Assembly: GCA_965655095.1 (NCBI GenBank)
Contig: OZ296649.1
Span: forward strand, 79,236,001 to 79,300,000
Direction of reading: 5' to 3'
DNA from: Haplodiscus bocki
Taxonomy: Eukaryota
DNA: 64,000 nt
Position 1 is the stretch's first letter. The number at the start of each line of letters is the position of its first letter. Below the pieces are notes generated by a model. That model had not been told where the DNA came from and searched no databases. It saw nothing but the letters and a program-made list of their open reading frames with translations. This document shows, piece by piece, positions 3,201 to 42,200 of the stretch. The translations under genes were made by a program, and so were the position numbers.

Positions 3201-3697
3201 TTTATATTTCTATTGAAAGAACGGATCAAGCTTACAACCTCCCCCCCGCGCGCGCATTGAAGTGTGGTGGAGATCAGTGATGCACATTTTTATTTTTTGA
3301 AAGTACCTTTTTGCTATTAACAAAAGCATATTTTTAAAGGAATCCTATAAATTTTTGTATAATCAATTTTGAATGTTGAGTGAAATTCATGAATTAAATG
3401 AATCATAAATTTTTCTTGTTCTTTGAATGATGACTCAATTTGGTTGGATCAAAAGGTCTTCTCATTTTTTCTTCTTATGGACTGTCTGAAACTTACTTTT
3501 CGTTCCTGGTGGTCTGCAGAATTCTAGTTTTGTCATCTCTGAAAGTTCAAAAGCTACTATTTGAAGCTTGAACGTTTACTTTCAACTTTTAAAGTGTAAA
3601 AATGATTCCTTTGAAAGGAAACATTTTGAAAAATTTACAAATAAAAAGGGGATAGAAATCTATAGTATCCTCTAAAATATACTTTGACTGATCCTAC

Positions 3698-4254
3698 TGT
3701 AGCGTCCCATAGCGTGGGGAGCTATTTGTTTATGGTTATTGTGGCTGACTTGATTTTTTTGTGCTTTTCCAAGCGAAAATTATTTGTTTTTGCAGGTTTA
3801 AAGAGTTAAATTTGGGAGATATTGACGACTAACATTTCTTCAGCTGGTTAACAACAGTAAGATTCGAGTATTTTTCTCCAAATCGGTTACAAAACTACAA
3901 TCACTATAAACTGTGAGTTGTACAAATTTTATTGGAAGCGATAAATATTTTGAGTCTGCCCCATTTAAAAATGCCGATAGGCGACGTTGTTCAACCGTTC
4001 GGTTGAGCGAAGAAAATCATTCAAAATATGTTTGTCCAATAAAAAACTTATTAAAGACTCGCGGTTGCACGAAGGGAGATGATTAACATTAATGCTACAC
4101 GATTAAAAACGAGATGAAGTTAACTAATAATAAAATGGGAAGCCTGGAAATAAAATGTGTGCCTTAGAAACAAAATAAATTGAATGACCGAAAAGAAAAA
4201 TTTTAAAATGTCCGTTATTAATTTAGAAGTAAAGTTTTGAGTTGTCTTATTGCA
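3698..4254 (-). repeat. 3' LTR
   Basis: Runs tgtagcgtcc...cttattgca with TG..CA termini. On the minus strand it is preceded by a short TTTAGTTGGG tract, a weak PPT. Confidence 0.9.
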
Positions 4255-4318
4255 CCCAACTAAATAGAATGCGTCCGTGCATTCTTGAACAAGCAAAGGA
4301 GAGGGGTCAGCGCTAGTT

Positions 4319-5530
4319 CTAAACGTCATCCAAAGATTCATTTTGTGGGCGGAGGTTGCAAAGGCGACAAAAATGACTGGAATCATTTCGCAGGACCGCG
4401 CGAATACCACAACAATCGTATTTTTTGCGAGTGATAGTGTCCGCTAGAATGTTGTGAATGGCGAATAGTTGTTGTGAGATGTTGCGATCAACTTCAGGGT
4501 GGCGGTCAGAATGGCAGAGGCGCATGAGTTACTGATAGTTCTTCTTGATATCCGCCTCTGATGTATGTCGGTGGGACGCTAAAACTTTGTAGAGGAAGTT
4601 TGTAGGGTTAACTTTATTTATATAAACAATGTCAGGGCAGGTCAGATAGGTGAGAAGCTGACGAAGCATGGGGAGGGATTTTTGGTCCAATTTCAACTCA
4701 TCAACGTTTTTCCATAAATCGGAGTTAGTGTCTTTCATGTCAGCAAGATTCGGTCATCAAGACCTTTTTGGCGAAGTTTTTCATCGATTGATTGTGGGTC
4801 TTTTCATATTTCTCTTTCTGTTTGTCAATAGCGCGCTCTAACCTGCAGAACAACGCTTTTTGAGAGTTCAATTCCTTACGAGCGTCTGCTGAAGTCTGTT
4901 CAAGGCTTTCAATTGCTTCGTTTGCTTTTGAGAGACCTGCAAATTCTATGTCCTCGAAACTGTCGGTGTAACAGGAGACAGAGGAAGTCCGTACAGGTGA
5001 TGTCAGCATGCCGTAATCGACAATGTCAGGCAAGACGGGAGGTGGCACAGGTGATGGTGAAGATGGAGTCATATCAAAATACATGGGTTCTGTGTTAACG
5101 GCCATTGATTTAGGGGGTTTTGGCGGCGTCCAAGCAGTGGAGGCGGGAGCGAAGAAATTGAACTTTTTGCTACCCTTCGCGGGAAAAACTAAGAGACTGT
5201 CGGAATTGGCGTTGCACCGAAAAACACGTTCAGGGGTCGGGTCAATCAGGAACACAATAGAACCAGGCTGGGCGTCGTCAGTAGAAGAAGCACCACGCAG
5301 TATAGTGGAAAAACGGAAGCAGAGAGTAATTCGAAACCCTTTTCGACAAAGTAAAAAAGACCGGAAAACGGCGGCGAAAGCAAAGTCGTGTCAAGCAAGG
5401 AACTACAGCAGAGCTGTGAAGTACCTAATCTCTTGAAGAAAACACGGAACTGCAGCGAGGCTGCTTGACTTCTAGTCTCGTGGGGGAAAACCACGGAAAG
5501 AAGAAACGTTTTGCAAGTTGTATGTCTCAT
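4319..5530 (-). pseudogene. Accessory ORF downstream of env: Pro-rich region, coiled coil and C-terminal DnaJ J-domain
   Basis: ORFs 4740..5255, 4529..4738 and 4319..4525 join through one frameshift and one in-frame TAA. The segment LYKVLASHRHTSEADIKKNYQ*LMRLCHSDRHPEVDRNISQQLFAIHNILADTITRKKYD (4415-4594) matches the J-domain helix pattern YxVL..EIKKAY.L...HPD..Y.IL.D...RK.YD. Confidence 0.8.
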
Positions 5531-5756
5531 GAGTGAGTCACGGAACGCGCAGCGGGGATATGCGAGCTAGTTGCTGGTAAGACCAGGGAAAAAGGAAAAT
5601 ACGTGGAAGACCACAGAAAAACGCAAAACTCTGTTCAGCAGAGCTGAAGGTTTCCGTGAAGGTGGAGAAAAAAGTTTACGCTCACCGTTAAATTACAGTG
5701 GACCTAACGTTCTCGGTGAAAAGACACCGGTAGTTGGTGTGAGCCTAGGTTTGAAC

Positions 5757-8063
5757 TTATGTCGCCGATGTGTAAACAAGAGTTCTATCGGGATACAAAG
5801 TATTCGGAGGAGGAACGCATGAGGTAGTTTCTCTTTCACTTTGAACAAGGAATTCGCGGGCCAATCCGTTGGCAGCCAGGAATTCAGCATCCGTCATATA
5901 CAGGAAAGGTGTTGTTACGTTATGGTCATCGTTCAGCGTAGGAACAGTGTGTAGGAATCGGCCGTGCGTGCTGCGGAACAACCGTTGTAGATGTTTGAAG
6001 AAACTTTCCCACTGACGCCGTAAGAGCGTGAAACTGATGCCAAAAGAGAAGAGAGAAATAGCAATGGATACACATGCCAGTCAAAAAGCAGTCCGCATAG
6101 GAATGTAATCTGCTACACCGCGACTGGTGGAAAGGGATAATGTCGTGTAATAATGTGGAATCGGTTGGTCCACTGTGTGAAGATCCTCGCTGGTCATTTT
6201 TTTCACGTACAGCAAAGGTGCAAGCTCCAACTGTACCTCACCAAGCGAATACACGTTCAGATCGGCGCTTGCGGACGGTAAGGTGTTGAAGATTGCAGCC
6301 ATAGAAGGTGTGAGTTTGGCAGTTCCAACAAACGGCTCGGGTTGTGTTCCACAAAAGTCCATGTCTGGGGTAAGAACAAGATCGCCATGGTTAAAAGTGA
6401 GTGTTGACGAACAGCTGGGTCGAATAAGATAGGCTTGACACTGCACTGTGGATATGGATACAGGTCAGCCATCGGTGTCGTTTTTGACTTGTAAACGTGC
6501 AGTACGGGATATGACGTGGTAAAAGCCATCCCCTTAATAAGTTTGCGGGGCCTCTGGCAACAAGACAGAGTCCATTAAACAGTTGCAAAGAGCTGGGATG
6601 CTATACTCATGAAAAAGAGACGTCGAAAAGAGAAGAGTTTCAACCGTGGTGGTGGAAAAACTTCGGCATAACTTATTGCGATTTGTTCCAGAGCATTGAA
6701 TGAGGTTAGGGGCACGCACTTCAGCATATTGCGAGTTATCAGTGGCAATTGCCACCAACTCATGAGAGAAATGATAAACCGAAGCTGTCGATCCATCCTC
6801 ATTGCGCTGGTGCAGGGGAATGGCACGAAAGACATCGAACGTGGACGATTTCGACTTCATTGGTATACCCCAGAGGATAGATAAGACTTCTTGCAAAACA
6901 GTGACTTCAAATACAATTTGGACTGCATAGTAAGTAGCCTCACAACCGGCTTGAATGGCTGGGGTCACCTTCGCTCCACGTCGAATTTCTTCTGAGGTAA
7001 TATCCTTGACAATTTCAGCGAGTTGGTTGGGTGTGAGGAAACTGGGTGGGAAAAAACCAGAAGAGTGCGAGGACAGTGGAATATATGGAGGTTTTATGCG
7101 ACACAAATTGAGCACCATAAGGTTTCAAGTGCTTATACATATAGGCAATATCTAAGTAGGACGTGTAATTGTGGACTTTATCTACGATGAGTTCGAATTG
7201 ACTCTGGACACTCATGCAATCACTGATAATGTTCAACTGGGGATTCAGCTGGCGAACGGCTTCTCCGTTAGCATTTAAACGGGCATGGATAACGTCTTGT
7301 AAGGCTTCAACGCGCTTTGTGGTGGCTGCGATTTCTGCGCACACAAGGACGAATTTCTCTTCAATGGCTTCTTGGACACGACGGATACTGCTCGAATTTA
7401 TCCTGACACTGGAGCAGATTGTGGACATTGTTCTTCAATACCGGGTTATCACTGCATAAGCTAAAGACGGAAAGGGCTTTGCAGGCAGCATTTCGTATCG
7501 CGTTTCCTAAAACAAGACCTGCGACACCAGAGGCTGCCATGAGTGCGGGAACAAGTCGTCGTTGTCAATGATCAGTAGCGCGAAAAGAAGGGGCTCCGTT
7601 AGGGGAGGCGCAAAAAAAGAAGAATTACGTAACAGTTCAGCGTTATCTTTTGCAATAGCAGAACGTTCATCCGCAAGTAGCTGTACACAATAGTTATTAC
7701 TTTATCGCAGGCCATCGGCACGACCGTGAGAGGTGAACCTAGCGATTGGGCTGCGCTCATTGGACGCAACTGTTCGTAACTATTGCAAGGAAGTCAAATG
7801 CCTTCGAACGTTACTGACGAGATCAATAGATGAATCAACTGCTGTCAAATCAACTGGCGGCGGTTGTGGGAAGGGAGAACAGACACGAACTCTGCTTCCA
7901 CTTTCTGTAGTGACTGCTTGGTAGTTTTAAATGAAGGTAGCGACTTCTTAGATGATGGGACTGCCATCTTCGGCAGGACCATCAGGAACAAACTGACCCA
8001 CAGGGACACTGGATACGAAGAGGAAACAAAACAGGTAGATATTAGCACATAAATTTGCGACAT
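5757..8063 (-). pseudogene. env: env-like class I fusion glycoprotein, disrupted
   Basis: A hydrophobic N-terminus starts at ATG 8063. [R>*]QRR|LVPALMAASGVAGLVLG forms a furin site plus fusion peptide (7567-7505). A heptad-rich helix (ORF 7015..7428) and Cys-rich ectodomain (6081-7118) follow, then TM LACVSIAISLFSFGISFTLLRR (~6080-6015) and a cytoplasmic tail to 5757. Confidence 0.8.
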
Positions 8064-8269
8064 CTAAACAACAAAAACGGCGATAAATACGGGTGAAGAT
8101 ACCAGAAGACTATTTTGGTACTAGCAGGAAAAAAGCATGAATTGACTAGTATGGGTATAAAAATGTAAGCAATCCGATCGGGTGATGAACCGTGTTTAAT
8201 GATGCGGTTGACATAGAAAACATGATTTTGTTACTTTGTTTTTTGTGTTTTTTTTTGTATTTAGTCTAC

Positions 8270-11200
8270 TGACTACTTGCGACCGGTTTTAGGACCTTTG
8301 GGTTTTCCGAATGAGCGGAAATGGAACTTGCAGTGGTTTGGACGGTTTCGTGCAGCTCTTTGTGCTGTAGACCGCGTTGTTTCAAACGATTGACCACTGT
8401 AATCCGCGTCTCGCGTCCTTTCACGTCCTAGTTCTTTCATTAGTTCGTGCTTGACTTGTTTATTGAGACTGTGTTGAATAATGGCGTGCCTTTCATTGAC
8501 TCTATTGCTGCGTATTGGACGGGGACAATTCTAGTCAGACCGGCGTATTGGAGAAAGTGTTGTCATACGCGAGTATGCATCAGTAAATACGGCGTCTGTT
8601 AGAAGTGGCTGTTGCGTGACAGTTTTAGCGGGCATTGAAGTAATTATAGGGGAACCAGATGGAGATGGAGGAATGACGGTTAGCCTTGGCGGAGATTGGT
8701 CTCCAAGAAAAGACGTGTAGGAATTAGCTGTGTTCAAGTGACATTTTGGGGAGTGAACGGCTTCTGGAACATGAGAAGCAAAGGCCAAGGGGGAATCACT
8801 TGATCGGTTTCGAAAAATGTCTTCCTCCAGTGGCGCAGAAGAACTTTCAATTGTTGGGACGGAGCCTGGGACGGGAACTGGGCCAACTGTTGGAGTACAA
8901 GTTAATTTGCTTTCACGGAAACAACCATGACACTTTGCAGGTGAAGGATGGGAAAAAAAACTCGTTTGGTGGTTTCGTTGGAAAGGGCGGTGTATGCGTT
9001 GGCGGGACAAAACCAACAGGAGGCGAACGGCACGGTTTCATGTGATGTTAGTGAACGATCAACACTTTGTTGGTTTCTATCTCACAAATTTTGTAAGTCT
9101 TTTCACTAATGACTTTCATGAGTTTGTAGGGATCGCGCCAAGAAGAATGAAGTGTAGGACTGAGTCATTGGGGAGTTGAGGGCTTACGGGGGATACTATT
9201 TGGCCTTCGGTGTATGTGGGGCCATGTACTTTAGCGTTATAAAGCGTATGTTGACGTTTCTGCTGACCGTGCATGTGCTGACGAGCCTGTTCGCAGGCTG
9301 TGTGGAACCGAAGTTGCGTCTCAGCAACCTGTTCGTAATAGCTTGTCCAAGAAGCTTCAGTTGCGGCAGGGAATTGTGCGTCTACTGGTAGGGTCACTTC
9401 ATGGCCAAAAAGCAGGAAGTGAGGTGTGTAGCCTGTTGACTCGTGGGCGGAAATGCGATAGGGAAACATTACATATGGAAGCATTTCAGACCAATTACGT
9501 TGGTTTTTTATCGATCGTTTTAGCCAGCAAATTCAGTAGCGTATGGTTTGTCCTTTCAATAACTGCACTGGATTGTGGGTGAAAACCGGTTGTGCCTGTT
9601 TTCTCTAATTGGAGCAGTTTGGTCCGACATGTGAAAAGTTTAGCTTCAAAATTAGGTCCTTGGTCGGAATTAAGGCTCTCGGGGTAGCCAACGCGGGTGA
9701 TCCAGTGATCCACGAGGGCGTTGGCTGTTGTAGGAGATGACTGGTCTGGTAGCACGACTGCTTCATGCCACTTGGTGAATTGATCATCGATCAGCAGGAT
9801 GTATTGATTACCTGCAGTAGACGGAAAAGGGCCTAAGAAATCAATACTGACCGTTGAGAATGGAAAACTGGGTTTGCATGCTCGGAGACTGTGGATATGC
9901 TCTTCCTGGGACTGCTGCGTTTCTGACAAACGAAGCAACTGGGAACAAACACTCCAACATCGCGTTTGTGAGCGGGCCAATAGAAACAGGAGCGTAATTT
10001 TTCTAAAGTCTCCGTGACTCCTAGATGAGCACTCGTCTGGTCAAAGTGGAGGGAATGGAGTATATATCGATCTAATCGTTGACCTGAAAAACCGTTTGAC
10101 TCTTTTTGAGATTTTCAAGCTTCCGGCAAAGAATGCCGCGAAAGATTGTTAGCTCATCAAAAAGATTCCACAGAGTCCGTACATCGCGAAGGAAACCCTG
10201 TTGGTGGGAACGGGGTGGACGAGATTGATTGCGTACGCAAGTCAGTACTTGATTGATTCCAGTACTGGTTGTTTGTGCGTTCTGTAAATGCATTGCTGAG
10301 TTGTGATCACCAGCTGTCGTGCGCGGGCGGAGTTTTGAGAGTAAAAACGGTTAGTTCGAGGTTTGATTCCCGAAAAATTTCACGGTTATTTTTTGTAGTT
10401 CAGTTCATTGAAGCTTATCCAAACCACATGATAAATGTGGAATACCCAATTTTTCGATCCGAGCAAAACTCATATGATCTCGCAAAACCAGTGTTGCTTT
10501 TGTCAGGGAGCGGTAAGTAGGTTTTTTAAAATAGCGTGGTTCGACTATCAAGTGAAACACAAATTTATCATTACCCAAATACTGTGCATGCAGTACTTGT
10601 TGCTTCTATTCCTTTCGCGTCGGGAAATAACTTGGAAAAATTCTGATTTGTTTCGCGAGACCAGCGGCCAGCTTGAGTCAATTGAAATAGAGTGGGCTTT
10701 TGAATGTTAAAAGTCCACTAAATCTCCTTGCTGCTCAATCACCGCGAAGTGTGATACTGGTTCGTTTGCACTGGCTTCGTGGCCGTTTCTATTCTCAGAC
10801 TGCTCATTAGTCTGATTGCTTTTGTTTTCTCCGGCTGTGTTGCCGTTTCTGACTTCAGACTGCTCATCATCAGTCAGTTTGTTCGCTCTAGTTTCATAGC
10901 CCTCTTCGACGTCAGACTGGTCATCATCAGTCGGAGTGATTTTATCGGTGTCCCGTGATACGGTGGTGCTATGCGATTGTAGTGCTGGTGGATTTTGACT
11001 GCTTGAAGAAGAAAGATTTTGCGAGAAGTTGTCTACCGAAGCGTCAACGTCGATGGATGGTTGTAGTCATGTTGAGAGCGGCGGCTAGTGCCGGGAGTCC
11101 TGACATACATTCAGCATGTCCAATGCTTTTACCGCTTCGGTGTTAAATCTCATAGTCAAAGGCAGCGACTTTTCAAGCCAACGAACAGTTGAGGCGTCTG

Positions 11201-13300
11201 GATCCTTAAAACTATGAAGCCAATGGAGCGCTCGTGGTTCGTATTGATCTCGAATCGTCGGCCAAGAAGGTAGTGCTTGAGGTGTCTGGTGTGATCGACT
11301 ATAGCTAAAACTTCTCGCTTTGTTGTCGAGTAGCGACTTCGGGTTTTGCTGAGAATTTCGGAAGCCTAACAAATGACTCGTTCGAGGCCATTCCGTGCTT
11401 AAGCCAGGACGGCACCGATGGCAAACTGACTTGCGTCAGTATACAGGTTGAATGGCTTTTTCATTGAGGGAAGGTTAAAATAGGTGACGAAGTGAGACAA
11501 TCTTTCAGTTGTTCAAAAGTCTGTTGGGCTGCTGAATTCCAATAATATCCTTTGATTTCCTCGGCTAGCTGATGAAGAGGTCGAGCAGTCGCTGCGAAAT
11601 CGCGAAGGTACCTTCGATAGTAGGGTCAGAGTACCAAGAAACATTCAACCTCAGTAACCGATTGCGGTACTGGATACTGGCGCACAGCTAAAGTTGTAGC
11701 TGGATCGGCTTGAATTCTATCTCGACTGATAATGTGACCCAAGAAAAGCACATATGGCCAGTGAAACTCACATTTAGGCGAATTGATTTTCAAGTTTGCG
11801 TCTTTGAAGTGTTGGAAGACCTCTGGAAATCTCTCAATGTGTCCCTAAAAAGTTCGAGAATGAATAACGCAATCGTCTAAGTATGAACTTGTGATTTTCC
11901 ACGTAAGGCCGATCAGGACTTTTTCCATTAGAGATTGGAAAACGGTAGGACTGAGCGTGAGATCCATTGGCATAAAGAGCCACTTGAAACAACCAAGCAG
12001 AGTACTGGATGCTGTATAATCTTGACTACTCGTTTCTAAAGGAAGCTGGTAGAAACCCCATGACATGTCGATAGTTGAGAAGTAGCAACTTCCTTCCAAA
12101 GTTTCGAAGGCTTTTTTCAACAGAAGGCAATGGCCAGCAAGATTTGACTGTTTGTTTGTTCAGTTGTCGATAGTCGATGACCAACCTGAGTTTACCATTT
12201 TCCTGCGGGACCAACATAGCTGGTGAGATATAGGGACTGTGGCATTGTGTTACCAATTTGTGTTCTAAAATTTTGTCGATCTTTTGACGTAGATCTTTTT
12301 CAAAATGCGCGTGCATTCGGCGATTGGGTATTTTCGCCCGTTTCTAGCCCGGATAAAGTTCAATCCTATTCTGAACAAGATCGCTTTTGCCATTATCCTA
12401 TTCTGATTTCGAGAACACGTCGGAAAATATGCGAAGGAGCCGCGCGGACTGTGCCTGAATATGTGGATCCATGGAAGAGTTAGTTTGTTTCAACTCTTCC
12501 TTAACGTCGTACTTATCTGGAACCTGGCCTCGATGGTGGTCCGGCAGGTCTGCGATGACTCGATTCATTGCCGCTATTTCAGCGGACCCAACCACGGAAA
12601 AAACTTCCCAGGGACGTGCCTTTGTAAAGAGTTACATCTTCAACAGCATTAATGAGGCGCGTTGGTATCATCTCCTCTGACTCACGAAGAGAACTGAAGG
12701 CTAATGACTCATGTTTCTCGCAAAGTGCGGGTGATGTCTCAGAAATACCCTGGATTTCTCCGCAAAACTCTGGGTGAGTAGCTCACCCATGATCACCGCG
12801 TCATGATCAGCTGGAATGAATGTGGTTTCTCGTGCAAAGGCAGTTGCTTGTTCAGTAGAAGGATCCGACGGAGCTTACGGCTATGAAACGAAAGAATTGT
12901 CTGAGAATTGGGGATATGAGTTGCATGCTAGAGGAAAGAGCAACACAGTGATTTTCTTCGAGGAAGTCTAAATCAAGAAGATATTCAGCTTCTGACGACT
13001 TTAACACAAAGAACTGTTGCTGGTATCGGTTGCTAGCGAGGGATATCGGCAATATTACTCAGCCCGAAACTGGTAATTCAGCTTGATTTGCGGCCAAAAG
13101 TCGTCGATGGGCTGGTTGAAGCTGTTTCTAGATGTTGACAGGAAGTTGTTTCAAAAGCTGTTGGCCAATGGAAGACACTAGCGCCAAAATCGCAAAATGT
13201 TCTAACTGAGGAGCTACACACCTCAAAATTCACAAAGACACCTTTGTGGTCTATGACAGAATTGAGACTAGCTTGTTATCTATTGAGACGATGGAGATCC
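8270..13300 (-). pseudogene. pol: pol polyprotein (aspartic protease, RT, RNase H, macrodomain, integrase, S/P-rich tail), disrupted
   Basis: Protease: FCDFGAS (~13190). RT: SPYISPAMLV..GKLRLVIDYRQLN, YFSTIDMSWGFYQ and YLDD (11845-12316). RNase H: FNLYTDASQFAIG (~11440). Integrase: SIDFLGP, SDQGPNF and HPQSSAVIERTN (9495-9980). Confidence 0.93.
10337..10742 (-). pseudogene. TARG1/OARD1 (Poa1p-like) macrodomain embedded in pol between RNase H and integrase
   Basis: Hand translation across frameshifts gives VIEQQGDLVDF*HSKAHSISID..LAAGLAKQIR..KFVFHLIVEPRYF..PTYRSLTKATLVLRDHM..GIPHLSCGLDKLQ*TELQKI..EIFRESNLELTVFTL. This follows TARG1 (GDLF..LAHCISED.MGAGIA..YYLITK..KPTY..L..MPRIGCGLDRLQW..IEEVF..ITVYTL) from end to end. 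Confidence 0.85.
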
Positions 13301-13329
13301 ACTGCGTAGCTACCTCGCTTATGCGCAGG

Positions 13330-14310
13330 CTGCTTTAATTCAAAGGTTGGGACCGACTGCGGCAATCACGCTCAAAATGTCACGCGCGCCCACATTTGAA
13401 GCAGGCTTTACAGTCATTGATCTCATGATTTTTACGATCGCAACATTGGCATTGTTTCTTGGAGTCGGTGCCAGAGGTGTTGAAATTCACTCAATTGTTG
13501 GAATTGTGCGATTGGCCTCGATTGAGGGTGGTACCTCGGTTATTGGTACAATTTCTTTGGTTTTAGTTCCAATTGCGGCGCTGGCCTTGATTAGCGTGGT
13601 TGAACGCCGAATGTGGCGATCGGCTGGTTGTGGGACATTCACCATTGCGGCCTCGCTGTGGGGGACCGCTCTGTTCATATACAGCTCCTTTACCTTCTTC
13701 GTTGTTGCTGAAAATGAGATCGGAAAGAGTTGGCTTTGATACGTCGAAGGACCGGTCAAATTTTTAACAGACGCCTCGGAAATGTTGGGCTGCTGGCTGT
13801 GGAGGTTTGAGTAGGATTGAATTTCAAGCGCCAAACTGACTGCGTCTTCAACCATTGTTGATTTAGCTTTTCGTTTTTGCCAGCCAACGAAAAAATTGGC
13901 CAACCCTTCGATGAATGAGGCGAGGAGTTCATTGCGCACAGCATCATCGGTATAAGCTTTTCCTGCCAGGTCAGTGAGTGTCCGGCAGAAAGCGGACACA
14001 TCTTCGCCCGATAGTTTGCCAAGAGGTTTGACTTGGGCCTTCAAGACGTCGGTGTTGGGTTTGTATTGTTGCCGGAAGAGGTGCTTGAGTTCATCGTAGC
14101 TGCCTTTTGGGGCAGTGGTCAGGTACCGGTAAAAAGTAAGAGCATCACATATGAAGCGGGCAGAAAAGAGATGGGGCGTGAGTCGGGAGTCAGAACGACC
14201 CAATTGGAAAGCGTGGAAGCGGCCTCTAATTGTGTAAGAAAGTGTCATATCTGTGAAACCACCGAAGGATGGCGGTAAAGGCAGGAATAGTTAGGTGCAG
14301 GTGCAGTCAT
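13330..14310 (-). pseudogene. gag: gag (capsid plus two CCHC zinc knuckles), frameshifted
   Basis: ORF 13487..14248 reads YDELKHLFRQQY..FIEGL. Hand translation of ~13355-13455 gives CQCCDRKNHEINDC and CFKCGRV[1-nt loss]HFERDC, both C-x2-C-x4-H-x4-C. Confidence 0.85.
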
Positions 14311-14653
14311 TGTCAGTAATACAGAATGGTTTTAGAGGAGCAAGGTTATCCGCCGCTAGCACATTTTCTTAGACATATAGTCGAGTACTTCATAAAGTTC
14401 ATGTTCGTGTAACGCAAAAGCAAAAACAGTTTTATCGCGATAAACATGCGGGCAATAATGAAGATCAGTCCAGGTTTGAGTTTTCGGGAAAATGTGTAGT
14501 TTTTCTTCAGACTAGCTGGGAGCAGGCGACGCATAAGTGGCGCTCCATCGGTAGGACATCAGAGTTCATGGACGACCAGTGGGAACTGGAGATCAAGAGG
14601 AAACCAACAAAAGTTGAGAGGAATGACAGGAGTGCCGAGCATCAGAGAGTGAA

Positions 14654-15382
14654 CTATTGAAAGTGGGAGAAGGAAACGGTCAATAAATTGGAATGTAAAC
14701 TCAGTGGGAGCGTAGTTGTTTTCCGATACTGAAAAACCTCTGCGTAAACCGGTGGAAACGTACGGGACGAAACGGTACGAGGAGGCGACTCGGGTTCTGT
14801 AAGATGTGTGGACATGAAGTGCGGAACGTTTAACCAGACGAAGCGGGCGTGATTGTCACCTAAGTTGACGTCGAGGCGGTAGAGACGGGGAGGAACTAGA
14901 CGGAATTGCAAGCGGAGTGGGCGAACACCACGGGAAAACAGCCGCGAGGCGTTGATTCAAAATCAAATGTTGCAAATGGATGATCCAGGCAGCAGCTAAC
15001 AAAGAAAAATGGCCATCTTTTGCGGAAGCGGAAGTACGGAACTGCAAGTATGACAGAGTGAGTGATTCTTAAAAAGTGTTTGCTTAATGTTGGCGGAGGA
15101 GTCCTGTATGAAGGAAACCAATTGTGACGCGGGGACCGGTTGACTTGAACCTAACTGAGCTAACTGAAAATCGAACGGAAGTTGTGCTTGAACAGACTGA
15201 CAAAAATAACACGGGATGGCGAGTGGGACGAGACCGGAGTAAAGTGGAGAATAATGTTTGAAAAACATCCAATAATAACTTTTTGGAACGGATAGAGCCA
15301 CGTCGCAACGACGGTTGCAAAATCGAAACCGGTACTTTCGGTAACCTTAAGAAAGAATCTCAGTGTAAGACTGGAACTTCAT
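14654..15382 (-). pseudogene. Extra Cys-rich ORF upstream of gag (ORF0), disrupted
   Basis: ATG at 15382 is in frame with ORF 14996..15301 through one stop. It contains FCNRRC, CYFC and CHTC and continues by frameshifts into ORF 14654..14911. Confidence 0.45.
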
Positions 15383-15637
15383 TTAGCCTAAATCTAGCTG
15401 TTCTGGTACGGTAGAAATGGAATTTGGCTACTTTATGTATTTTTCAATGGTATTTGATCTGTTCAATTGACGGTACTCTCCTTGAAAACGCCGGAATGAA
15501 CCTATTTTCGCTGATTCAGAGTTCTAAGACTCGGGGTTGTCTCAATTTTGATCTCAAAAATTCAGAACAGCCGAAAGAAATTAATACCTGAGGTTGCAAA
15601 TGCAACAAAGGTGAAAAGAACTGGATGAATCAGGTTC

Positions 15638-15655
15638 GCAAACACACTGTCACCA
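15638..15655 (-). promoter_or_regulatory. Putative primer binding site
   Basis: The minus strand reads TGGTGACAGTGTG.. 5 nt inside the 5' LTR, and TGG pairs with the tRNA CCA end. The cognate tRNA was not identified. Confidence 0.55.
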
Positions 15656-15660
15656 GTTTC

Positions 15661-16210
15661 TATAGCGTTCCTTAGCGTGGGAAGCTATTTGTTGTTGGTT
15701 AGGATCAGACTTGAATTTTTTTGTACTTTTCTAATAAAGAGATTTATTTTTTGCCGGATTAAAGAGTTAAATTTGGGAGATATTGACGACTAACTTTTCT
15801 TCAGATGGTTAACAACAGTAAGATTAGAGTATTTTTCTCCAAATCGGTTACAAATTTACAATCACTATAAACTGTGAGTTGTACAAATTTTATTGGAAGC
15901 GATAAATATTTTGAGTCTGCCCCATTTCAAAATGCCGATAGGCGACGTTGTTCAACGGTTCGGTTGAGCGAAGAAAATCATTCAAAATATGTTTGTCCAA
16001 TAAAAAACTTATTAAGGACTCGCGGTTGCACGAAGGGAGATGATTGATATTACTGCTACACGATTAAAAACGAGAGGAAGTTAACTAAAAACAAAATGGG
16101 AAGCCTGGAAATAAAATGTCTGCCTTAGAAACAAAATAAATTCAATGACCGAAAAGAAAAATTATGCAATGTCCGTTAATAATTTGAATGTAAAGTTTTG
16201 AGTTCTTATA
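15661..16210 (-). repeat. 5' LTR
   Basis: Direct repeat of 3698-4254 (tatagcgttccttagcgtggg...aaagttttgagttcttat). Its outer edge abuts a HINE-like insertion starting at ~16213. Confidence 0.9.
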
Positions 16211-24200: not shown

Positions 24201-27200
24201 AATGAGAGCAGTAGGGTTAGGACAACAGCGTTCTCAAGCAGTAGGTTTGGGGTTCGAGTCACTGCCCGTCCAAAATTCTTTACGATTTATCCCTAACATT
24301 TTTCGATACCCGAATTTATCGAATTACTAAAGGATTCACCTGCGAACTTTTTCGGGACTGTGAGGCAAAAAAATTAGACGGAAAATCTTGATACTCCCCC
24401 CCCCCCCCCTCCTATCCAAACTTTTTCGCTACCGGAAATTAATGCAACAATAATGGATTCCCCTACAGAAATTTTCGGCACTGTGAGACAAAAAAATTTC
24501 GACAGAAAATCGAAAATCGTGAAATAACCCCCTGAAGCATAAAATTTTTCGATGCCCGAAATTAGTGAAACACTAAAGGGTTCCCCTACGAAAATTTTCG
24601 GCACTGTGAGACAAAACAATTTTGACGGAAAATTGTGATACGCTTTTGCTTAAGTACAGAAATCAGTGGTCAAATTGATGTTTGTAGAAACTTTGGAAAC
24701 TAATATCAAAACTGTAGTTTTGTTTTTAACCGTTTGCAAAAGTTGATCAAAATATTTGTAGTTGGGCGAAAAATATGCTGGTGCTAGCCGGCCGTCTTGT
24801 CTTACTATTTTGGGCCTTACGGGCAGTGCCAACTTGGCTGTTCTGGGCTTGTTGGCTAGTGTTTTTTTTGCATAACATTGTTAGTTGGTGCTGTGCTTCT
24901 TGGAAGACAAACTGCCCGACCGAATGCTACAGAAACTTCTCAAGTCGACGCTTCATTAAAACTTTAGCTGTTGCCGATGCTTTCGTAGCAAAAATGGCAC
25001 AAAATTTCGAAGGTTTCGTAGCAAAATCGTTAAACAACTTATTTTCTTCCCATATTTAAATATGGTAGGAAAATCGTCCATTCCCCGCTTTCATGTTCAC
25101 TCGCTATTTGCTCGATTCTAGCAAGTTGCGCGACTTCTGACTTTCAAACTTTTTCTGCACGAAATTACAGGAAATTTGGTGTGGAACGCGCCTAAATTGT
25201 TACTTTAAAACGCCATTTTTTTAACCATAACAGATAGCTTATTGGGGAAAAAATCTGAATTTTCGTAAAACAAAATTCAATTGAGTTAAAAGGGTAATAT
25301 TTCTCGAAAACCCTTTTTTGGACCAAAATTTAGGGTTTTTGAAAAATTAATGAAAAATTACAATTTTGCTCTCGAATGCTTCTTACTCTAAAAATCCTTT
25401 TGTAACAAAGTTGGAGGGCTAGCCGGACGTCTTGTTCTGGTATTCTAAAGCATTTTAAAGCCATAGGTGCGGGTTGGAGACGTGGTAAATCCCTGAATTT
25501 TTTGCTTTTCAAATTCTTTCAAGTACCATTAAAAGAAGATTTCTGATACATTTTCCTTGAATCAAAATTTTCGGAAAATTCAAGAATGCAAGAGATTTCC
25601 GTGACGCCAATTTTCTCATACCATAGTTCTTGGAACCCAAATTTTCAATGGATCCTCTCAAAACTTTTGGATACCCGCCGACATATTTTGAGCCTTATGT
25701 GCAGCGTCGATTTTAGCGATCCCAGCTTGTTTGTGTTCATAATACAACTGAAATCAACTAAAATGAACTGAAGATTGCATCCCAGTGCGACCAAATAGGT
25801 ATTCAATTGTAATGTAGCTATTCCGAAGGCTCAATGAAACAACCTTTTCAAATTATCTGGAAATGTTCGAGTACCAATTTTTTTTATACTTCCGTTAAGC
25901 GAAAAATTTAAAACTCTGTCATCTGCAGACATAAAAATCTGTAATGTATAGAGACAAGAATGCTATATAGTGGTGTGATGAAAGATTTGGACTTCGTATT
26001 GTGAAAACCGTTTCGAGCAGGGCTAAATCTCAAAAATTAACAAGTTTCGATTACTAATAATACCACATGTGTGATACCATTCAAGAACCATCGTAGGGCA
26101 CAAATTACACAAGTACTGGATATACACTTGTTATTTTTCGCCCATATTTATAATATGGAAGGAAAATCATCCGCACTTTTTCACGTTTATTTCCCTAGTC
26201 GAGCTTGCATAGAAGTTTTTGTAAGTACATGTTTCTGTAAGTTGCCTGACAATTTTTACAATTTTTTACACGATGCATGTACTCCTTATTTACGCGAAAA
26301 ACGAACCAAACTTTCAAGAAGTGCAAGCGATCTAAGCGTTGAGAAAAAGCAGCCGCTGAATGGGATACGATATAATCCATCGCTTTGATCGATGAATGAA
26401 TTCACAGTGTTTCGTCTAATTTCGTCAGAATTATTTTGACGGTTGGTTTTCGTACAAGACACCCAGCCATCACCGAGATATTTTCCGCCTTCCAACTTTG
26501 TTAAAGTTACCTTTTAGAAGGATGATAGCGTTTTTTCTCCAAAAAGAAGACTTTTTTCCTCAAATTTGTAATTTTCCTTCTTAAGCAATTTTTCCATTTT
26601 TTTGACCTCAATTAAGGTGGGGAAAAAGGCATTTTAAAGAAATAACATCCTTTGCTACGCATTCTACAGCGGATTTGCCATCTTTTCCCGATTTTGAAAA
26701 AGATGAATTAATTTTTGAAAAAAAAACAAGTTTGGTACGCTTATGAGAAATATTATTTCAGTCGCATTCTACGGCAAATTTGCCAGAATTCGGTGATAAA
26801 AATTTTCATATTCATAACCGTTGGACATTCGGACATTTTCAAGTGGCAAGTAAGCATTAAAAAACGCACGCGTTGTGTGGATGATTTTCATTCCATATTT
26901 AAATATGGGCGGAAAACAATAAATGGCACAGTTTTTACCCTCAAGCAATCCCTGAAATACTGTATAAAGTGGATTCAAGTGTTTTTTGGTTTCAGCAGAT
27001 TTTAAAACTCCAACGATATAATGAAAAGTTTTTAAAACGACTGTTCAACATGATGTCACGTGACACTAGTTATCATTAATTTGAACTCTTCTTTCCGTAT
27101 ACGCAAAGGGAGTTGTAAATTGATGTGAGCCGAGTTCAATACACCACCGAACATATTGAACAAGATGTAGGACTTTAAGCTTTTTTGACGTTGGTTTTCA

Positions 27201-30200: not shown

Positions 30201-33200
30201 TTGCGGAAGCAAGTATTATAAGTCTTGAAATTTTTTTCCGATCCGTTCACAACTAACACAAGTTCCTAGATTGACTAAAGAGGAGTAAGTGTGCCCTAGA
30301 CTCGAACCTGTGATAGCCCGCATCGAAGTCACTTTCTGTATCTACTAAGCTATTTGTGCTCGAGAATTGACAATTTCTTAAAAGTTTTAAAGTCCTGATA
30401 TTAGATGGTTTGTAACCCCTCTTAAACTTATTTTTGACAAAATTTTTTGAAATCTCATATTTTCTCTGCCAAGAAATTTTATTTTAATTTCTTTCAATCT
30501 GAGCCGATATCTTAATCGCCTCGCGGGCTTAGCAGTATATTTGAATCTTCCTAACAGCCAAAAATTGCAATGAAAATTGTCAAATTTCATGCAAAACAAG
30601 CTAAGAACAGCTCAAAGTCGGCGCTACGCATCTGTCGGGTGCGAAAATTTTAGTGAACAAGAGAAGGCGTATCACAAAAAATCTTTTCACGGAAAAAATT
30701 CGTGAGAGGGCACTTTTGGTGTTTCGGAAAGACTGCGTTATCGAAAAGTTTTATGCGTATATTATAAAAAATTATATAACTTTTCTCCCAAAATTTTTTG
30801 TCCCACAGTACCGAAAAGTTTCGTAGGGGAACCCTTTGGTGTTTCTGAAAGTTCCTGGTATTGAAAAACTTTATACATGAAAGGGCGGGGGTAACTGGAT
30901 TTCTGCTAAAATTTTTTTGTTTATACAAAGTTCTGGGTGTTTCCGAAAACTTCTGGCGTTGATCATTGGTCGGGTGCGAAATTTTCGATAAACTAAAGAG
31001 GAGGGTATCAGAAAAAAGATGTCGAAAATTTTTTGTGTCACAAAAAAATTCATGAGGGGAGCCTTTTTGGTGTTGCAGAAAGTTTCTCGTATCGAAAAAA
31101 TTTATGCATATGGGGGGTATCACGAATTTTTGGACATTTTTTTTGTCTCACAGTGCCGAAAAAATTTTCGTAGGAGGCACTTCTTGATGTTTGTGAGTAC
31201 TTGTCCGCGCCTCTTATAGAGTCTATTTGTGTGCTTTGAAATGATATGCCATGGAAAAACGTTAGGGAAAGTAGACAATTCTTTGTGATCTTGAAAAAAA
31301 CTAAGTGACTACAAGAGTCGGCTTTTTTTACAAGTAAAAGCGCCGACTAAAAATGCTATAACTTATCTTAATTCATGTGAAAGCAAATTTATCTGTCTAA
31401 ACACAGTTGATGTTCTCAAGAATGACAAATTTTATCGGTCAAAATTCACTTTCAGCCTTTCAGAAGTTGAGGGGTTGTAGGCTTAGAAAAAAATGCCAAA
31501 TGGGTTAAAATGCTTTAAATAGGTCAAGATTTATAAAAACAAAATGATGGTTCCGAGAGTATAACTGCGATCGTCTATTAATTTGATACATTTTTTTTTT
31601 CAAACAAAAGGCATTGCAATCTACGTAAAAATTGAAGAAACTTCCTGAAACTTCCTTGTAAGTTCGCTAGATTTTTTGATATTCCGCTGTCCCGTTTCTT
31701 TTTCACAGCCTCGTGTTCCATTTCTTCATCACAGCATTCTATTTAGACGTTCGTGCTTATTACACTTGTATAAAAATTTATAAGAATTAACTGACTTAAT
31801 TAATGTTCTGTTTAATCAGTAGTTTTTGTAGTACCGTGACACCTCTAAAATAATTATACTTGTTCGATTTGTTCACTAGTTTTCCGTTGGCGCAAGTGTT
31901 GCGAAACACAGCTTCGCCTTTGTGTTGTAAATGTAACAATTTTACCTCCTTCACTCTAAGATGACTCTGAAGTGATCAAATTCCGTGTTGCAATAATCTC
32001 TAAAATAATACAATCGACTGACTATTTCATTAGGGAGCTTATGTTCTTGGAAGTAGATGTTTATGCAATTTTGAACAACTCCGGAAGGTTCAAGTTGGCG
32101 CTGCCTGTAAAGCTTGGAATTTGCTAAGAGGTTTCACAAAAATTTCTGTTTCTGGTCTTTTGGTAGATGCATCTGGGCTTATCACGAAAAAAGTCGAAGC
32201 GGTGGTCCAGTTTTTTTTCGAAAAAAATCTAAATATAAAGGGGGTGGGGTTATCATTAAATTTTTCGGTTTTGTCTTTTCGGAAAATTTTTGGTAAATGC
32301 AAAGTGGTGCTATCGCAAACTTTTCGGTTTTTTTTCATTTTAAAAAATTTTGAATTTGGGTTAAGGTAGGCAGGGGGTTACTCAAAAAAATTGTGCATGG
32401 TAGAAATGACTTCGACATGTCCAAAATAAGCCTTCTTTTCAGCATTTGGACCTGTGCTTCTGTAATTTTTGAACAATTTTGAACATTTTGGTGGAACTGA
32501 ATTGTGTACCCTAGCAGTAAGTCTTAGGAAAGAAGATCACTCATAAGCTGAAACCTTTTCTTCTAAAAAGGGACAGCTAAAAGAAATTTTGATAAAGCTA
32601 GATGGCGTATTTTGGAAACATTGAAGAGCATGCAAATTGAAACTGTTGAAACTTGTTTCGTGGAACTCTTGCTTTGGGCCTATTTGGTCCAAGTGGGTCA
32701 AAACCCGTATAAGGGTTTGATTATGCCGAGTTGTTTTTTAGATCAGTTTGACGATATTTTGGTCAAGTGTCATAATTAAGTAGTTATTAATTAATTTTGA
32801 CTGCATAATTAGGCCTCCTTTTGAGCCCTGGTTATTAACCTTGTTCGCTACTGACACTAAATAAATAAATTTGACAGCTTTGTAATTATTTAAGTCTTAT
32901 TAACACAGTTAGCTTCAAACGCTTTGCTCTATCCGAGGTTGTTATTCTTTATGTAGAATACTTTTTTGTTTTCCGTTTGCTTGTCTTCGCGATAGTGTGA
33001 AATTGAAGATAAAGTTGGTAATCCTGTTTGTGTGGAAGTAAATGAGTCATTGATCCTATTGAGCAGCTTCGTTCTTCTGTTTGTATCGTACACTTTTCTC
33101 CCCTGGAAGTCCTCTTTGTGTAAACAGCCTCTGCCCACCGTAATTCGCAACAACAGCTGGTGAACTGGCTCCTGTTAAGATAAAGTGTTCAGCGCCTCAG

Positions 33201-39200: not shown

Positions 39201-42200
39201 TACTTCTGGTTTTCTGGAAAAACACCGCAGCTTCATTTTGTACCAAAAAAGCTAGGCAGAGAAATGAATATGTTTTCGGAGATAACAAAAAGAGCTTTTT
39301 TCTGATAAAATGCAAGAAGCTGATATTGACTGTTTGTTGCTACTCATCAAAAATGGTAAAAACACACAAATTGGCAAATCATCTCATAATATTTGAACAA
39401 AAAACGCCTGGAAAAAATGTAAATTGTCTTTTCCCTCCTATTACATAGCTTTTTAAGCTAATTTAGGAAGTCAGTGGTAGGTCAGGTCAGTCTACGTTTG
39501 TCAAATTAAATTTATTTTATCTACAGTTTGAATTTTTCAACTGATGATACTGAATTTTCAATAAAAAAAAAGAAATGAAATTAAGTTTAAGTTGATAATT
39601 TTTTGCAGAAAGTCAACAAAATTAACTTTGAGAAGGAAATCATGGTGCATCAATTTTTAACGTTATTATTGAAAATTTTTACGGAGTTATTAGAAAACAC
39701 CTCCATAGTGACGAAGGTTATTAGAATCAAGCCGAGAACGGCCAACTCGACGGCGCCCGTAAGACTCAAAATACTCATACGATGGAGTTGATTTTCCTGT
39801 GTGAAAATTTTTGGATTATCGAACAAAATTTGTCAAATGCAGTATTAAGACTTATCTTCCAGTTTTTCGGTGCAAAATATTTTCGCTGAAGGGATTTTCG
39901 GAACCTTCTACACTACCTGGGAAGACAAACAGTTGAAAAAAATTGGTATTTGCTTTTCGGAGTTTTTGGTTTTGGCGAAGGGAGTAGGGGGTATCGCGAA
40001 AACTTTTGGCAGGTATATCATCAAAAACTTTTGAGCATTCAGGAGGGCGTTATGTCAACACGCAATCAGTGTTTTTAAAAATTTTTTACGTATTTGCGAA
40101 ATGTGGGTATTGGCGGTTTGAAAAAATTGTGTTCGCCCAAGAAAATTTTTGGAGCTTGCGTTTCGATAAATGTTGGCATATGCAAAGGGGGTATCATTTT
40201 TTTCGATTTTTTTTGTCTCAAAATGCCGAAAAACATCGTAGGGGGAACCTTTGATGTTCAGAAAACTTTTGGCTCTTTGGAAATATCTATCGTAATTTTG
40301 TTAGGAAACTTTTCAGAGCGTGGAATTTTTTTTGAAGGTACTCTGTAATGTCATTAAATCCGCGTGAATCTCAGTCTCAAAAAAATTGGACAAGCAAAAA
40401 AGTACATTTAGGGGGGGGGGGGCATCATGGAAGATTTTAAAAACTTTTTAAAAAAATTTTAAAAAAAATAATTTTGGTGGTGGAAAATGGAAAGTATAAA
40501 GAATAAGGAGAAAACAGTAGGGTATCACTTTTGGAATTTGTTTGCTCGAAATTTTCTGGATTTAAAAAGGTGGTATCACGAATGGTTTTCGTTTTCTTCT
40601 GATTCGAAAAAAAATGAAAAGTGAAAAAAAAACACTTTGGTATCTGCTTTATTCAAAATTTTCTGGATCTGCTTTCCACAATTTTCCGGCTCTCTGGTGT
40701 TTTTTTTGTTTGGGAAGGTCTTTGCTACATTCTAGACTTTGTAGTGCTTTAAAAAAATTGAGCTCCTATGCATAAATTGGCCAATTTTAGACATCAATAT
40801 CTCTGAAACAATTCGAAATGGTTAATTTTGGTAGAAAAAAGCTTCTTAGATTTTTATCTAGTTTACAATCGTTTTTGTTTCAAAATTTTGCGACCAATAC
40901 ACCAAAAGTTGGAAATTATCATCTTTGGGATAATTTTAAATAAATTTGATGCATTTTTCATATATAGAGACCTCAATGAAAACTTTTTTGGACACATTTT
41001 CGTAATTATTGCCCTAATTATCTTTAAACCATTGATATAAATAATTAATTTTCAAAAACAATTTCGAATTGCTCATAAAATCGCTGTTTAAACAATGAAC
41101 TTTGAAGTTACATGTTTTGAGATAGGTTTGAAAAATTGTTTTTCTTTGAAGTTTTGCGATATCTATTTTAATTCAAAATATTTCAATCAAAATTTATCAC
41201 AGGATTCAAGAAATTCTGGGGAATTTTTGTGGTACATAATTTTTCTAAAGTTTTTTCTAACTTGGTCGCACCTCAAAAAAAACGTCAGAAACTGCCGAAA
41301 CTGGCAAATGTTAACCAATGAGATTGCGAATTGAGAGAAAATAACGAGACCCTTTTGGCTAAATGGTTTCAATGTATGTTCTTAAGCTCCCTTCTTTTGA
41401 AACATTACTGGTAGTATATTATATTATATGTTGTATCGGTTCGTAAAGACGTCTTGTACAGAGTGAACCCTGTCGTCTTTAAAAAAAACAAAGCACTACT
41501 ATAGTCGGCCTTTTTAGTGGTAACTAAAGCGCCAAAAGTGTCCAATGGCCATTAAAACTTCCAGAATCAAAACTGGAACTGCTTTTGATCTGAAAATGAC
41601 CAAAATTTTTCGGCGTAGGCTTATCGCTTCAAGTCTCAATGTTTCTAAACTGTGTTTCAGCAATCAAATTCTTCTATGTGGACAACTCCATGTACTCCGT
41701 ATCACGCAGTAATGACCACAGTAAGTTCTATTTCATACAAATTGCATCCATTTTTCCAGGCTTGTTGATTTGATGTGGGTTTTTACCCCAAAATGCTTCT
41801 TCTTAGGACAAGAAAACAAGATTTTTGAAAGAATTCGTTTGAATTAAATTCGGTTGAAAGCTTCTGTACCTAACAATAGCAAATCAGGAAATGAATTTGA
41901 ATTCGTCTTCCAGACATAGTGAACGAGAGAGTGCGCGAATTTATTATTCTTTGAATTTATTTTGAAAACTCGCAATATCCGTTTTGGGTAAACAAATCTC
42001 TTCTCTGAAATTCAACTACCCGCGCCTAATGATCAAATACCTCGATAACATGCGAACATGCGCTACATTCATAAAAGTTTGCCTCTTGTTTTAGCATATG
42101 AATTTTAAAGTGCACTGCATTGCGTTTTTGTTGATCTTTTTTTCAGGCGTCATTTTATTGAACGAATACAAAGACAAGCAATTAGAAGTATCTGTAGCCC

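Follow-up and report, generated by a model that had tools for sequence, protein, structure and literature searches.

Structure of the element in the window

The DNA analyzed here (the window) is a 64,000-nt stretch of the Haplodiscus bocki genome (contig OZ296649.1, positions 79,236,001 to 79,300,000). On the minus strand, positions 3698-16210 of the window carry a 12.5-kb Ty3/Gypsy element with an envelope gene (env) and a long terminal repeat (LTR) at both ends. Between the LTRs lie three small leader open reading frames (ORFs; u1, u2, and u3), gag, pol with an internal macrodomain, env, and a 3' ORF with a J-domain (J-ORF). The LTRs are 91% identical, and three of the four bases of the target-site duplication (TSD) agree. 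Every ORF of this copy is broken, with 4-12 lesions/kb per ORF in pairwise comparison with open-frame sister copies. The window copy is an old, decayed insertion of an env-bearing Ty3/Gypsy element.

The minus strand of the window was searched with Pfam in three frames, with stops read as X. Reverse transcriptase (RT), RNase H (RH), integrase (IN), a weak gag, and DnaJ were found, the last with E=3.6e-6 and 27.4 bits against a cut-off of 27.8. The macrodomain and env were not called by Pfam in this broken copy, and their coordinates were mapped back from open-frame sister copies (Table 1). A preliminary description of this stretch had placed co-oriented, similarly decayed, and intronless blocks between two LTRs, including a macrodomain inside pol, an env block, and a J-domain ORF. 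The exact LTR ends, the common orientation, the similar decay, and these three blocks were all recovered. The term intronless holds within the blocks, but splice-acceptor-like sites lie at the starts of env and of the J-ORF.

Table 1. Features of the element, with positions in the window
Feature	Position	Strand	Description
5' LTR	15661..16210	-	Termini TATA...TATA in family A, rather than TG...CA; termini and 4-bp duplications seen in young copies
Primer-binding site (PBS)	15643..15655	-	Matches the 3' end of host tRNA-Leu(CAG) over its first 9 nt
Leader ORF u1	14830..15268	-	Broken; 143 aa in open copies; CxxC motif
Leader ORF u2	14654..14815	-	Truncated; 74 aa in open copies; N-terminal PPxY/LPxY and one transmembrane (TM) helix
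Leader ORF u3	14356..14642	-	Broken; 97 aa in open copies
gag	13335..14310	-	Retrotrans_gag, CCHC knuckle; overlaps pol in the -1 frame at a UUUAAAC slippery site that has degenerated in the window copy
pol	8273..13365	-	Broken; protease (PR), RT, RNase H, low-complexity linker, macrodomain, integrase
Linker repeats	10761..10932	-	~60-nt repeats giving an acidic, weakly constrained linker preceding the macrodomain
Macrodomain in pol	10337..10748	-	TARG1/OARD1-like; broken
env	5757..8063	-	F-type; open copies encode 778 aa with an RxxR furin site, a hydrophobic fusion peptide, and a TM at the C terminus; ATG immediately preceded by AG
J-ORF	4313..5312	-	Broken; predicted KOW/SH3-like barrel (5121-5288) followed by a Pro-rich linker, a coiled coil of ~105 residues, the J-domain (4409-4600), and a cluster of Cys at the C terminus
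Polypurine-tract (PPT) position	4252..4275	-	Degenerate in window copy; purine-rich in young copies
3' LTR	3698..4251	-	From LTR comparison; inner end at ~4251
TSD	3694..3697	.	3/4 bases equal to 16211-16214

Copies, families, and selection

The LTR search gave 40 matches from the 40 scored of 317 candidates, and the J-ORF search gave 139 match rows, with 134 scored of 1400 candidates; both are lower bounds. All 14 two-LTR copies that were compared were colinear with the window element, two of them with internal deletions or rearrangements. LTR identity was 84-99.8% in 10 of the 14 and exceeded 96% in eight, with TATA termini and 4-bp duplications. The open frames encode a Gag of 346 aa, a Pol of ~1749 aa, an Env of 778 aa, and a J-protein of 325-339 aa. 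The imperfect TSD and the 9% difference between the LTRs of the window copy might point to a copy-specific chimera or an assembly artefact. This is refuted by the colinear copies, by raw-read contigs that cover 30 of the 30 bins of a sister copy in four runs of one study, and by an independent metagenome contig with a J-ORF and an LTR, and we give it practically no chance.

At least six related families (A, to which the window copy belongs, D, F, G, H, and I) exist in the genome, and some of their copies have near-identical LTRs and open frames. The distant families were sampled through J and Env relatives (four copies of D and two each of F, G, H, and I). An LTR pair was found in 11 of these 12 copies, with an identity of 99.3-100%. 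In family D, the seven ORFs are in identical order, Pol identity is 54%, and the LTRs are 99.8-100% identical. Three env queries gave at least 60, 56, and 58 matches. With LTR pairs nearly identical within copies of every family and env matches this numerous, the clade has multiplied recently in the Haplodiscus bocki genome. The lineage had been described as a relic; only the window copy is one, and sister copies have 99-100% identical LTRs and open frames.

The six families form a single RT-RNase H clade (support 100/100) in a tree built with database proteins that bear no clade labels. Thirteen outside database Pols (40-47% identical in RT-RH) fall outside this clade, and the database Pol P0045 falls inside. 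Structurally, the elements are Ty3/Gypsy: they have LTRs, a PBS, a PPT, a short TSD, the order PR-RT-RH-IN, a Ty3-type RNase H, and an H2C2 integrase. Their termini are TATA or TGTA...TATA, not TG...CA.

The ratio of nonsynonymous to synonymous differences (pN/pS) ranged from 0.12 to 0.32 over the ORFs, indicating purifying selection on every one. The values for u1, u2, u3, gag, RT, the macrodomain, env, and the J N-terminus were 0.27, 0.16, 0.16, 0.19, 0.12, 0.13, 0.12, and 0.23, respectively (all p<1e-4). The leader-ORF values were computed from distinct codon variants common to at least two of 17 copies. In control non-coding frames, pN/pS was 0.49-1.7, and none of the nine was significant. 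Further ORFs in the env-J spacer, the pol-env spacer, or the PBS leader were rejected, as none of the nine frames gave a selection signal.

The macrodomain and env are present in all six families, the J-ORF in five (vestigial in F), and the leader ORFs in five. An explanation in which the extra ORFs are passengers, that is, captured host fragments or chance frames in an ordinary env-bearing Gypsy element, draws on family F, which thrives without a J-ORF or leader ORFs, and on family G, which lacks u1 and u3. However, each ORF is under strong purifying selection relative to the controls, and the ORFs are retained across families at 22-44% identity. The passenger explanation is thus largely refuted by pN/pS, and we consider it very improbable. 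The same retention and selection support the earlier proposal of a complex env-bearing lineage with accessory modules. That proposal would have fallen if the extra ORFs were missing from other copies, and the family comparison showed that they are not.

Gag-Pol and the macrodomain

A UUUAAAC heptamer lies at the end of gag in all six families. The macrodomain sits between RNase H and integrase and, in an open-frame sister copy, matches human TARG1/OARD1 (PDB 4j5q) with E=8e-24. Equivalents of H32/S35, GxG, K84, G123, and D125 were found. K84 and D125 form the catalytic pair of TARG1 according to the available text of PMC6397177; 15 of 23 copies retain both, as does family D. The macrodomains of the six families are monophyletic (99/94). 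Selection on the macrodomain (p=3.5e-7) stands beside a pN/pS of 0.72, not significant, for the preceding linker, and of 0.21 for a conserved ~80-aa segment between the macrodomain and integrase. The preliminary description had compared this domain with the macrodomains of alpha- and coronaviruses. The macrodomain is real, but it is of the TARG1 class, whereas the viral ones are of the MacroD-type class.

TARG1-like macrodomains also occur in Gypsy Pols of other animals, namely sawfly (Athalia rosae XP_048515211), thrips (Frankliniella fusca KAK3918320), and weevil (Rhynchophorus ferrugineus XP_076269006), where the domain likewise lies between RNase H and integrase. The external Pols that were aligned differ from the present ones, being 40-47% identical in RT-RH and outside the six-family clade. 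Among the best 150 matches of a macrodomain-integrase database search, 23 longer ones and P0045 were scanned for domains, and 18 of these 24 carried retroelement domains. With two probable clade members set aside, the macrodomain preceded integrase in nine, followed it in six, and had an unclear position in one. Two other database proteins were seen: an insect virga-like virus replicase (P0046) has a TARG1-like macrodomain 35% identical to that of the element, and P0155 is an FHA-macrodomain-PNK3P fusion.

Env

An RxxR site followed by a hydrophobic peptide, together with a C-terminal TM, was found in Env of all four families checked. Two of the five close env relatives scanned exceeded the Baculo_F cut-off. 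The layout is errantivirus-like: gag-pol-env order and an F-type env with a furin site, fusion peptide, and TM. A single-sequence structure model of Env had a pLDDT of 36 and was unusable. Two young copies with different J alleles (L056 and L059) share a ~2.5-kb deletion that takes most of env, and four further copies have env deletions with other ends. A spliced retrocopy was rejected as the origin of the ~2.5-kb deletion; its ends lie inside pol and env, not at acceptors, and the four other deletions end elsewhere.

Leader ORFs

A single Cys-rich ORF0 had been proposed upstream of gag. No copy has such a long frame, and this ORF0 was rejected. There are instead three separately selected small ORFs in different frames, even in copies whose LTRs are 99.5-99.8% identical. 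In the sister copy inspected, they contain just 2-3 cysteines apiece. The ATG is kept in 21, 16, and 21 of 23 copies for u1, u2, and u3, respectively. In family A, the gap between the preceding stop and the next leader-ORF ATG is ~11-14 nt. Families A, D, and I have all three (order kept in D, u2 first in I), H has two, G has one, and F has none of at least 40 aa.

u1 (p=6e-5) retains a CxxC motif, is 50% identical over 72 aa in family D, and has homologues in H and I. u3 (p=9e-5) is 44% identical in D, and the I and D forms match with E=2e-6. Neither u1 nor u3 matched a family in Pfam, PHROGs, or the atlas used. u2 (p=4e-5) has a TM in each of the five families that encode it (A, D, G, H, and I); four of them (A, D, H, and I) also show a PY motif. 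Fusogen hallmarks were looked for in u2; an N-terminal MG is lacking in A, D, G, H, and I, and a basic tail is lacking in A and D. Though it lacks the hallmarks of the FAST-like sORF2 of MDG1 elements, u2 may still act at membranes.

The J-ORF and its alleles

The J-ORF is present in family A (as alleles A, B, and C), D, G, H, and I, with 22-37% identity between families. Its assignment as a J-domain protein is solid. The domain is above the Pfam cut-off in A, C, D, and G and below it in H and I, with a fold Z of up to 9.1. Open-frame copies representing A, C, D, G, H, and I all retain the HPD motif. It is missing from the B copy in the comparison but present in B-like database proteins. The structure model of the J-protein (pLDDT 69.5, built from 22 sequences) begins with a small beta barrel and continues through a disordered Pro-rich linker and a helix of ~105 residues to the J-domain and a Cys tail. 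The barrel matched UBE2O (Z 7.0, rmsd 1.9 over 53 residues, a score within the range of common arrangements), with weak matches to Spt5 and eIF5A. These matches give modest support to a KOW/SH3-like barrel.

Outside the assembly, relatives of the J-ORF were found in 43 ENA proteins and in one metagenome contig (L084), which carries the J-ORF and an LTR. Word-based searches, which miss distant forms, found none in viral contigs. In family F, a vestige of J consists of the barrel, plus the Cys tail in one copy (L088 ~5100-5450; L086 ~3970-4140), and one copy has further unexplained ORFs past env. Family I has an extra ~205-aa ORF past the J-ORF (L100:4944-5555 and L098:4855-5475) that is 66% identical between two copies; it looked SGNH/GDSL-like by eye and had no Pfam or PDB match. 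A tandem array of J-ORF-bearing units with periods of ~2-4 kb occurs at L082-L083.

The three J alleles are 55-70% identical in amino acids, and their synonymous sites are saturated (pS 0.75-0.79). The backbones under the swapped alleles have an env pS of 0.003-0.15. Two copies that are ~100% identical over gag-pol-env have J proteins that are 57% identical. Between two copies, identity is ~98% up to the J acceptor, where it drops to ~70%, and it rises again only close to the 3' end of the LTR. J is usually swapped together with the LTR U3. Mosaics also occur: allele C of J is paired with a type-A LTR in one copy, and A-type LTRs also accompany B alleles. The alleles show purifying rather than positive selection (pN 0.20-0.31).

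Two explanations of J, both partly compatible with the co-chaperone role that we favor below, are live alternatives. The Tat, Tas, and Rev proteins are the model for the first, in which the J-protein is a regulatory trans-factor, an early product of a short spliced RNA that would act on its cognate LTR or RNA and, through Hsp70, reshape a host complex for transcription or export. The position of the J-ORF between env and the 3' LTR, the predicted splice to an LTR exon, the weak resemblance of the KOW-like barrel to Spt5, and the joint swapping of J and U3 are consistent with it. However, template switching and adjacency suffice for the co-transfer, mismatched J/LTR pairs occur, and no DNA-binding or activation domain was identified in the J-protein. 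We regard this role as possible but doubtful.

The loading of small RNAs depends on Hsp70/Hsp90. In the second alternative, the J-protein, perhaps with the macrodomain, would counter silencing by diverting this loading, and the alleles would persist as small RNAs target the 3' end and the LTR. Three saturated alleles on near-identical backbones would fit repeated sweeps or a balanced polymorphism under host pressure. The purifying selection on the alleles argues against this, and promoter or tissue-niche switching would explain the swaps equally well; we hold counter-silencing to be unlikely, a little more so than the trans-factor role.

Expression signals and proposed mechanism

The PBS matches host tRNA-Leu(CAG) over 17-22 nt in families G and H and over 9 nt in A, and two dispersed genomic loci were confirmed as tRNA-Leu(CAG) genes. 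J is preceded by an acceptor-like AG, always in the same phase, in each of the seven lineages (A, B, C, D, G, H, and I); within family A, 20 of 23 copies have such an AG before J, and 19 of 23 have AGATG at the start of env. All four lineages without an early J ATG (A, G, H, and I) contain an AT|GTRAG donor within the LTR or leader, with a chance of 0.10-0.17 each, a figure that is indicative only because the motif was picked after inspecting the sequences. The donor is absent in C and D, where J has an ATG of its own, and in F, where J is vestigial (three of three). The J-ORF appears to be expressed from a spliced RNA whose junction creates the AUG. The env of the Drosophila springer clade, spliced from an AU dinucleotide in the available text of PMC12992720, is a precedent. 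Among the assembled contigs listed for four sequencing runs, there was no informative splice joint.

We believe that this is probably a complex clade of errantivirus-like Ty3/Gypsy elements with an F-type env, whose J-protein brings Hsp70 to the ribonucleoprotein of the element. The LTR would drive a full-length RNA, with tRNA-Leu(CAG) as primer. Conserved signals suggest that u1-u3 are read by leaky scanning or re-initiation, that Gag-Pol is made by -1 frameshifting at UUUAAAC, and that spliced RNAs encode Env and the J-protein. The J AUG would, in most lineages, arise when a 5' exon ending in AU is joined to an acceptor beginning with G.

The protein roles are proposed from what is known of each family. 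Env may mediate pH- and furin-dependent entry, most likely from soma to germline within the animal. TARG1 strips ADP-ribose from proteins and from DNA/RNA ends in the available text of PMC11088682; the Pol-borne domain may therefore protect the reverse-transcription or integration complex, stripping host ADP-ribose in the particle from element proteins or cDNA/RNA ends. u2 may be a PY-motif membrane adaptor for Nedd4-family ligases that acts in budding or surface remodelling. The J-protein would be an oligomeric co-chaperone. Its KOW-like barrel would bind an RNA or protein complex of the element, and its HPD loop would bring in Hsp70 for the remodelling of that complex during assembly, uncoating, or export.

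Several observations weigh against this proposal. The element is known here from DNA sequence alone. The donors lie at non-homologous positions, the hairpin that follows UUUAAAC does not reach significant stability (z +0.8 to -1.3), and the score of the J barrel is an ordinary one. A strict motif check left the K84 equivalent unconfirmed in G and H and the D125 motif unconfirmed in F. Env matches a solved fusion protein weakly (E=4e-4), a two-sequence profile did not recover this match, and the atlas neighbours of Env in Baculo_F and Fusion_gly are recognized at a low level. The PY motif is absent from u2 of family G, and young env-deleted copies exist. Family F, with at least 60 env matches and LTRs 99.85-100% identical, multiplies although it has no leader ORFs and just a vestige of J, and those genes are therefore dispensable.

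A bolder form of the proposal is that a Metaviridae clade independently arrived at the organization of complex retroviruses. It would be infectious and enveloped, with a trans-acting late-domain adaptor, a particle-borne ADP-ribose eraser, and a spliced, Hsp70-recruiting regulator of its own LTR/RNA. In an arms race with the host, this regulator and U3 would be exchanged as interchangeable cassettes. We offer this as speculation that is rather unlikely to hold as a whole.

Comparison with known elements

The element appears to work like an errantivirus with accessories in the style of complex retroviruses. Its env, macrodomain, and leader ORFs each have a precedent; none was found for the J-domain ORF. 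F-type env is widespread in Gypsy elements across animals ('ancient errantiviruses', Chary and Hayashi, PMC13524379, available text). Those elements share with ours the Ty3/Gypsy Pol, the gag-pol-env order, the furin site and fusion peptide, the multicopy state, and commonly tRNA-Leu primers. In contrast, a term search of the main text and seven supplements of that source gave no mention of macrodomain, DnaJ, accessory, or sORF, and the RNase H-integrase bridge domains described there are RNase H-like or 'mini' folds.

Drosophila 412/MDG1 elements, as far as the available text of PMC11952523 describes them, also have small ORFs upstream of gag (sORF1/sORF2) under purifying selection, one of which encodes a ~70-aa transmembrane peptide. 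Unlike the present element, they have no env, and their sORF2 product, a FAST-like fusogen, is N-myristoylated and carries a polybasic region. Here, u2 has a PY motif and its TM is terminal in A and D, and three leader ORFs are combined with env, macrodomain, and J. By analogy only, u2 resembles the herpesvirus Nedd4 adaptors UL56, U24, and UL42 (PMC5849660, available text), with an N-terminal PY and a C-terminal TM, more than MDG1 sORF2 (PMC11952523).

Retroelements with captured enzymatic ORFs have been reported. Teleost endogenous retroviruses with macro-domain ORFs are cited in the available text of PMC4977317, and bdelloid LTR elements have enzymatic ORF3s in that of PMC5408684. These belong to other lineages, and in the same texts the domains named are GDSL, DEDDy, or CNPase, not a J-domain. 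The word DnaJ occurs 0 times in the available text of PMC5408684 and PMC8672886, and a term search for splicing in that of PMC3383448 gave no matches.

Among viruses, giant viruses encode DnaJ proteins with an HPD J-domain; they are DNA viruses with another domain context, and the KOW-coil-J-Cys arrangement was not found among the giant-virus DnaJ matches. The polyomavirus T antigen is also a viral J-domain protein. In the literature searched, which lay outside Repbase, GyDB, Dfam, and most subscription journals, we found no precedent for a J-domain ORF in a retroelement or for the full combination, and no paper describing a macrodomain in a Gypsy element.

Env-bearing Gypsy elements are treated as simple, three-gene elements, whereas the clade described here keeps seven selected ORFs over deep divergence. 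The macrodomain is common in Gypsy Pol and offers a handle on whether ADP-ribosylation restricts retrotransposons. The clade also gives handles on element budding and on the swapping of 3' accessory-gene/LTR cassettes over an invariant backbone. Families with and without each module in one genome serve as built-in controls.

Other observations

At G000:C1:~161.07-161.15 Mb, a large tandem array with a ~424-nt period has a pattern matching the 3' end of tRNA-Leu(CAG). Elsewhere in the window, exons of a teneurin gene (EGF, TTR, FN-plug, NHL, and RHS domains) lie at 42095-49535 on the plus strand and mark the host as an animal, and putative upstream exons near 29183 and 38669 had no Pfam match. 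Positions 52312-54487 hold a ~1090-nt tandem duplication with 95-99% identity. A dispersed ~120-nt repeat family, in direct and inverted copies, is found at 24295-24633, 30620-30999, and 40208-40258.

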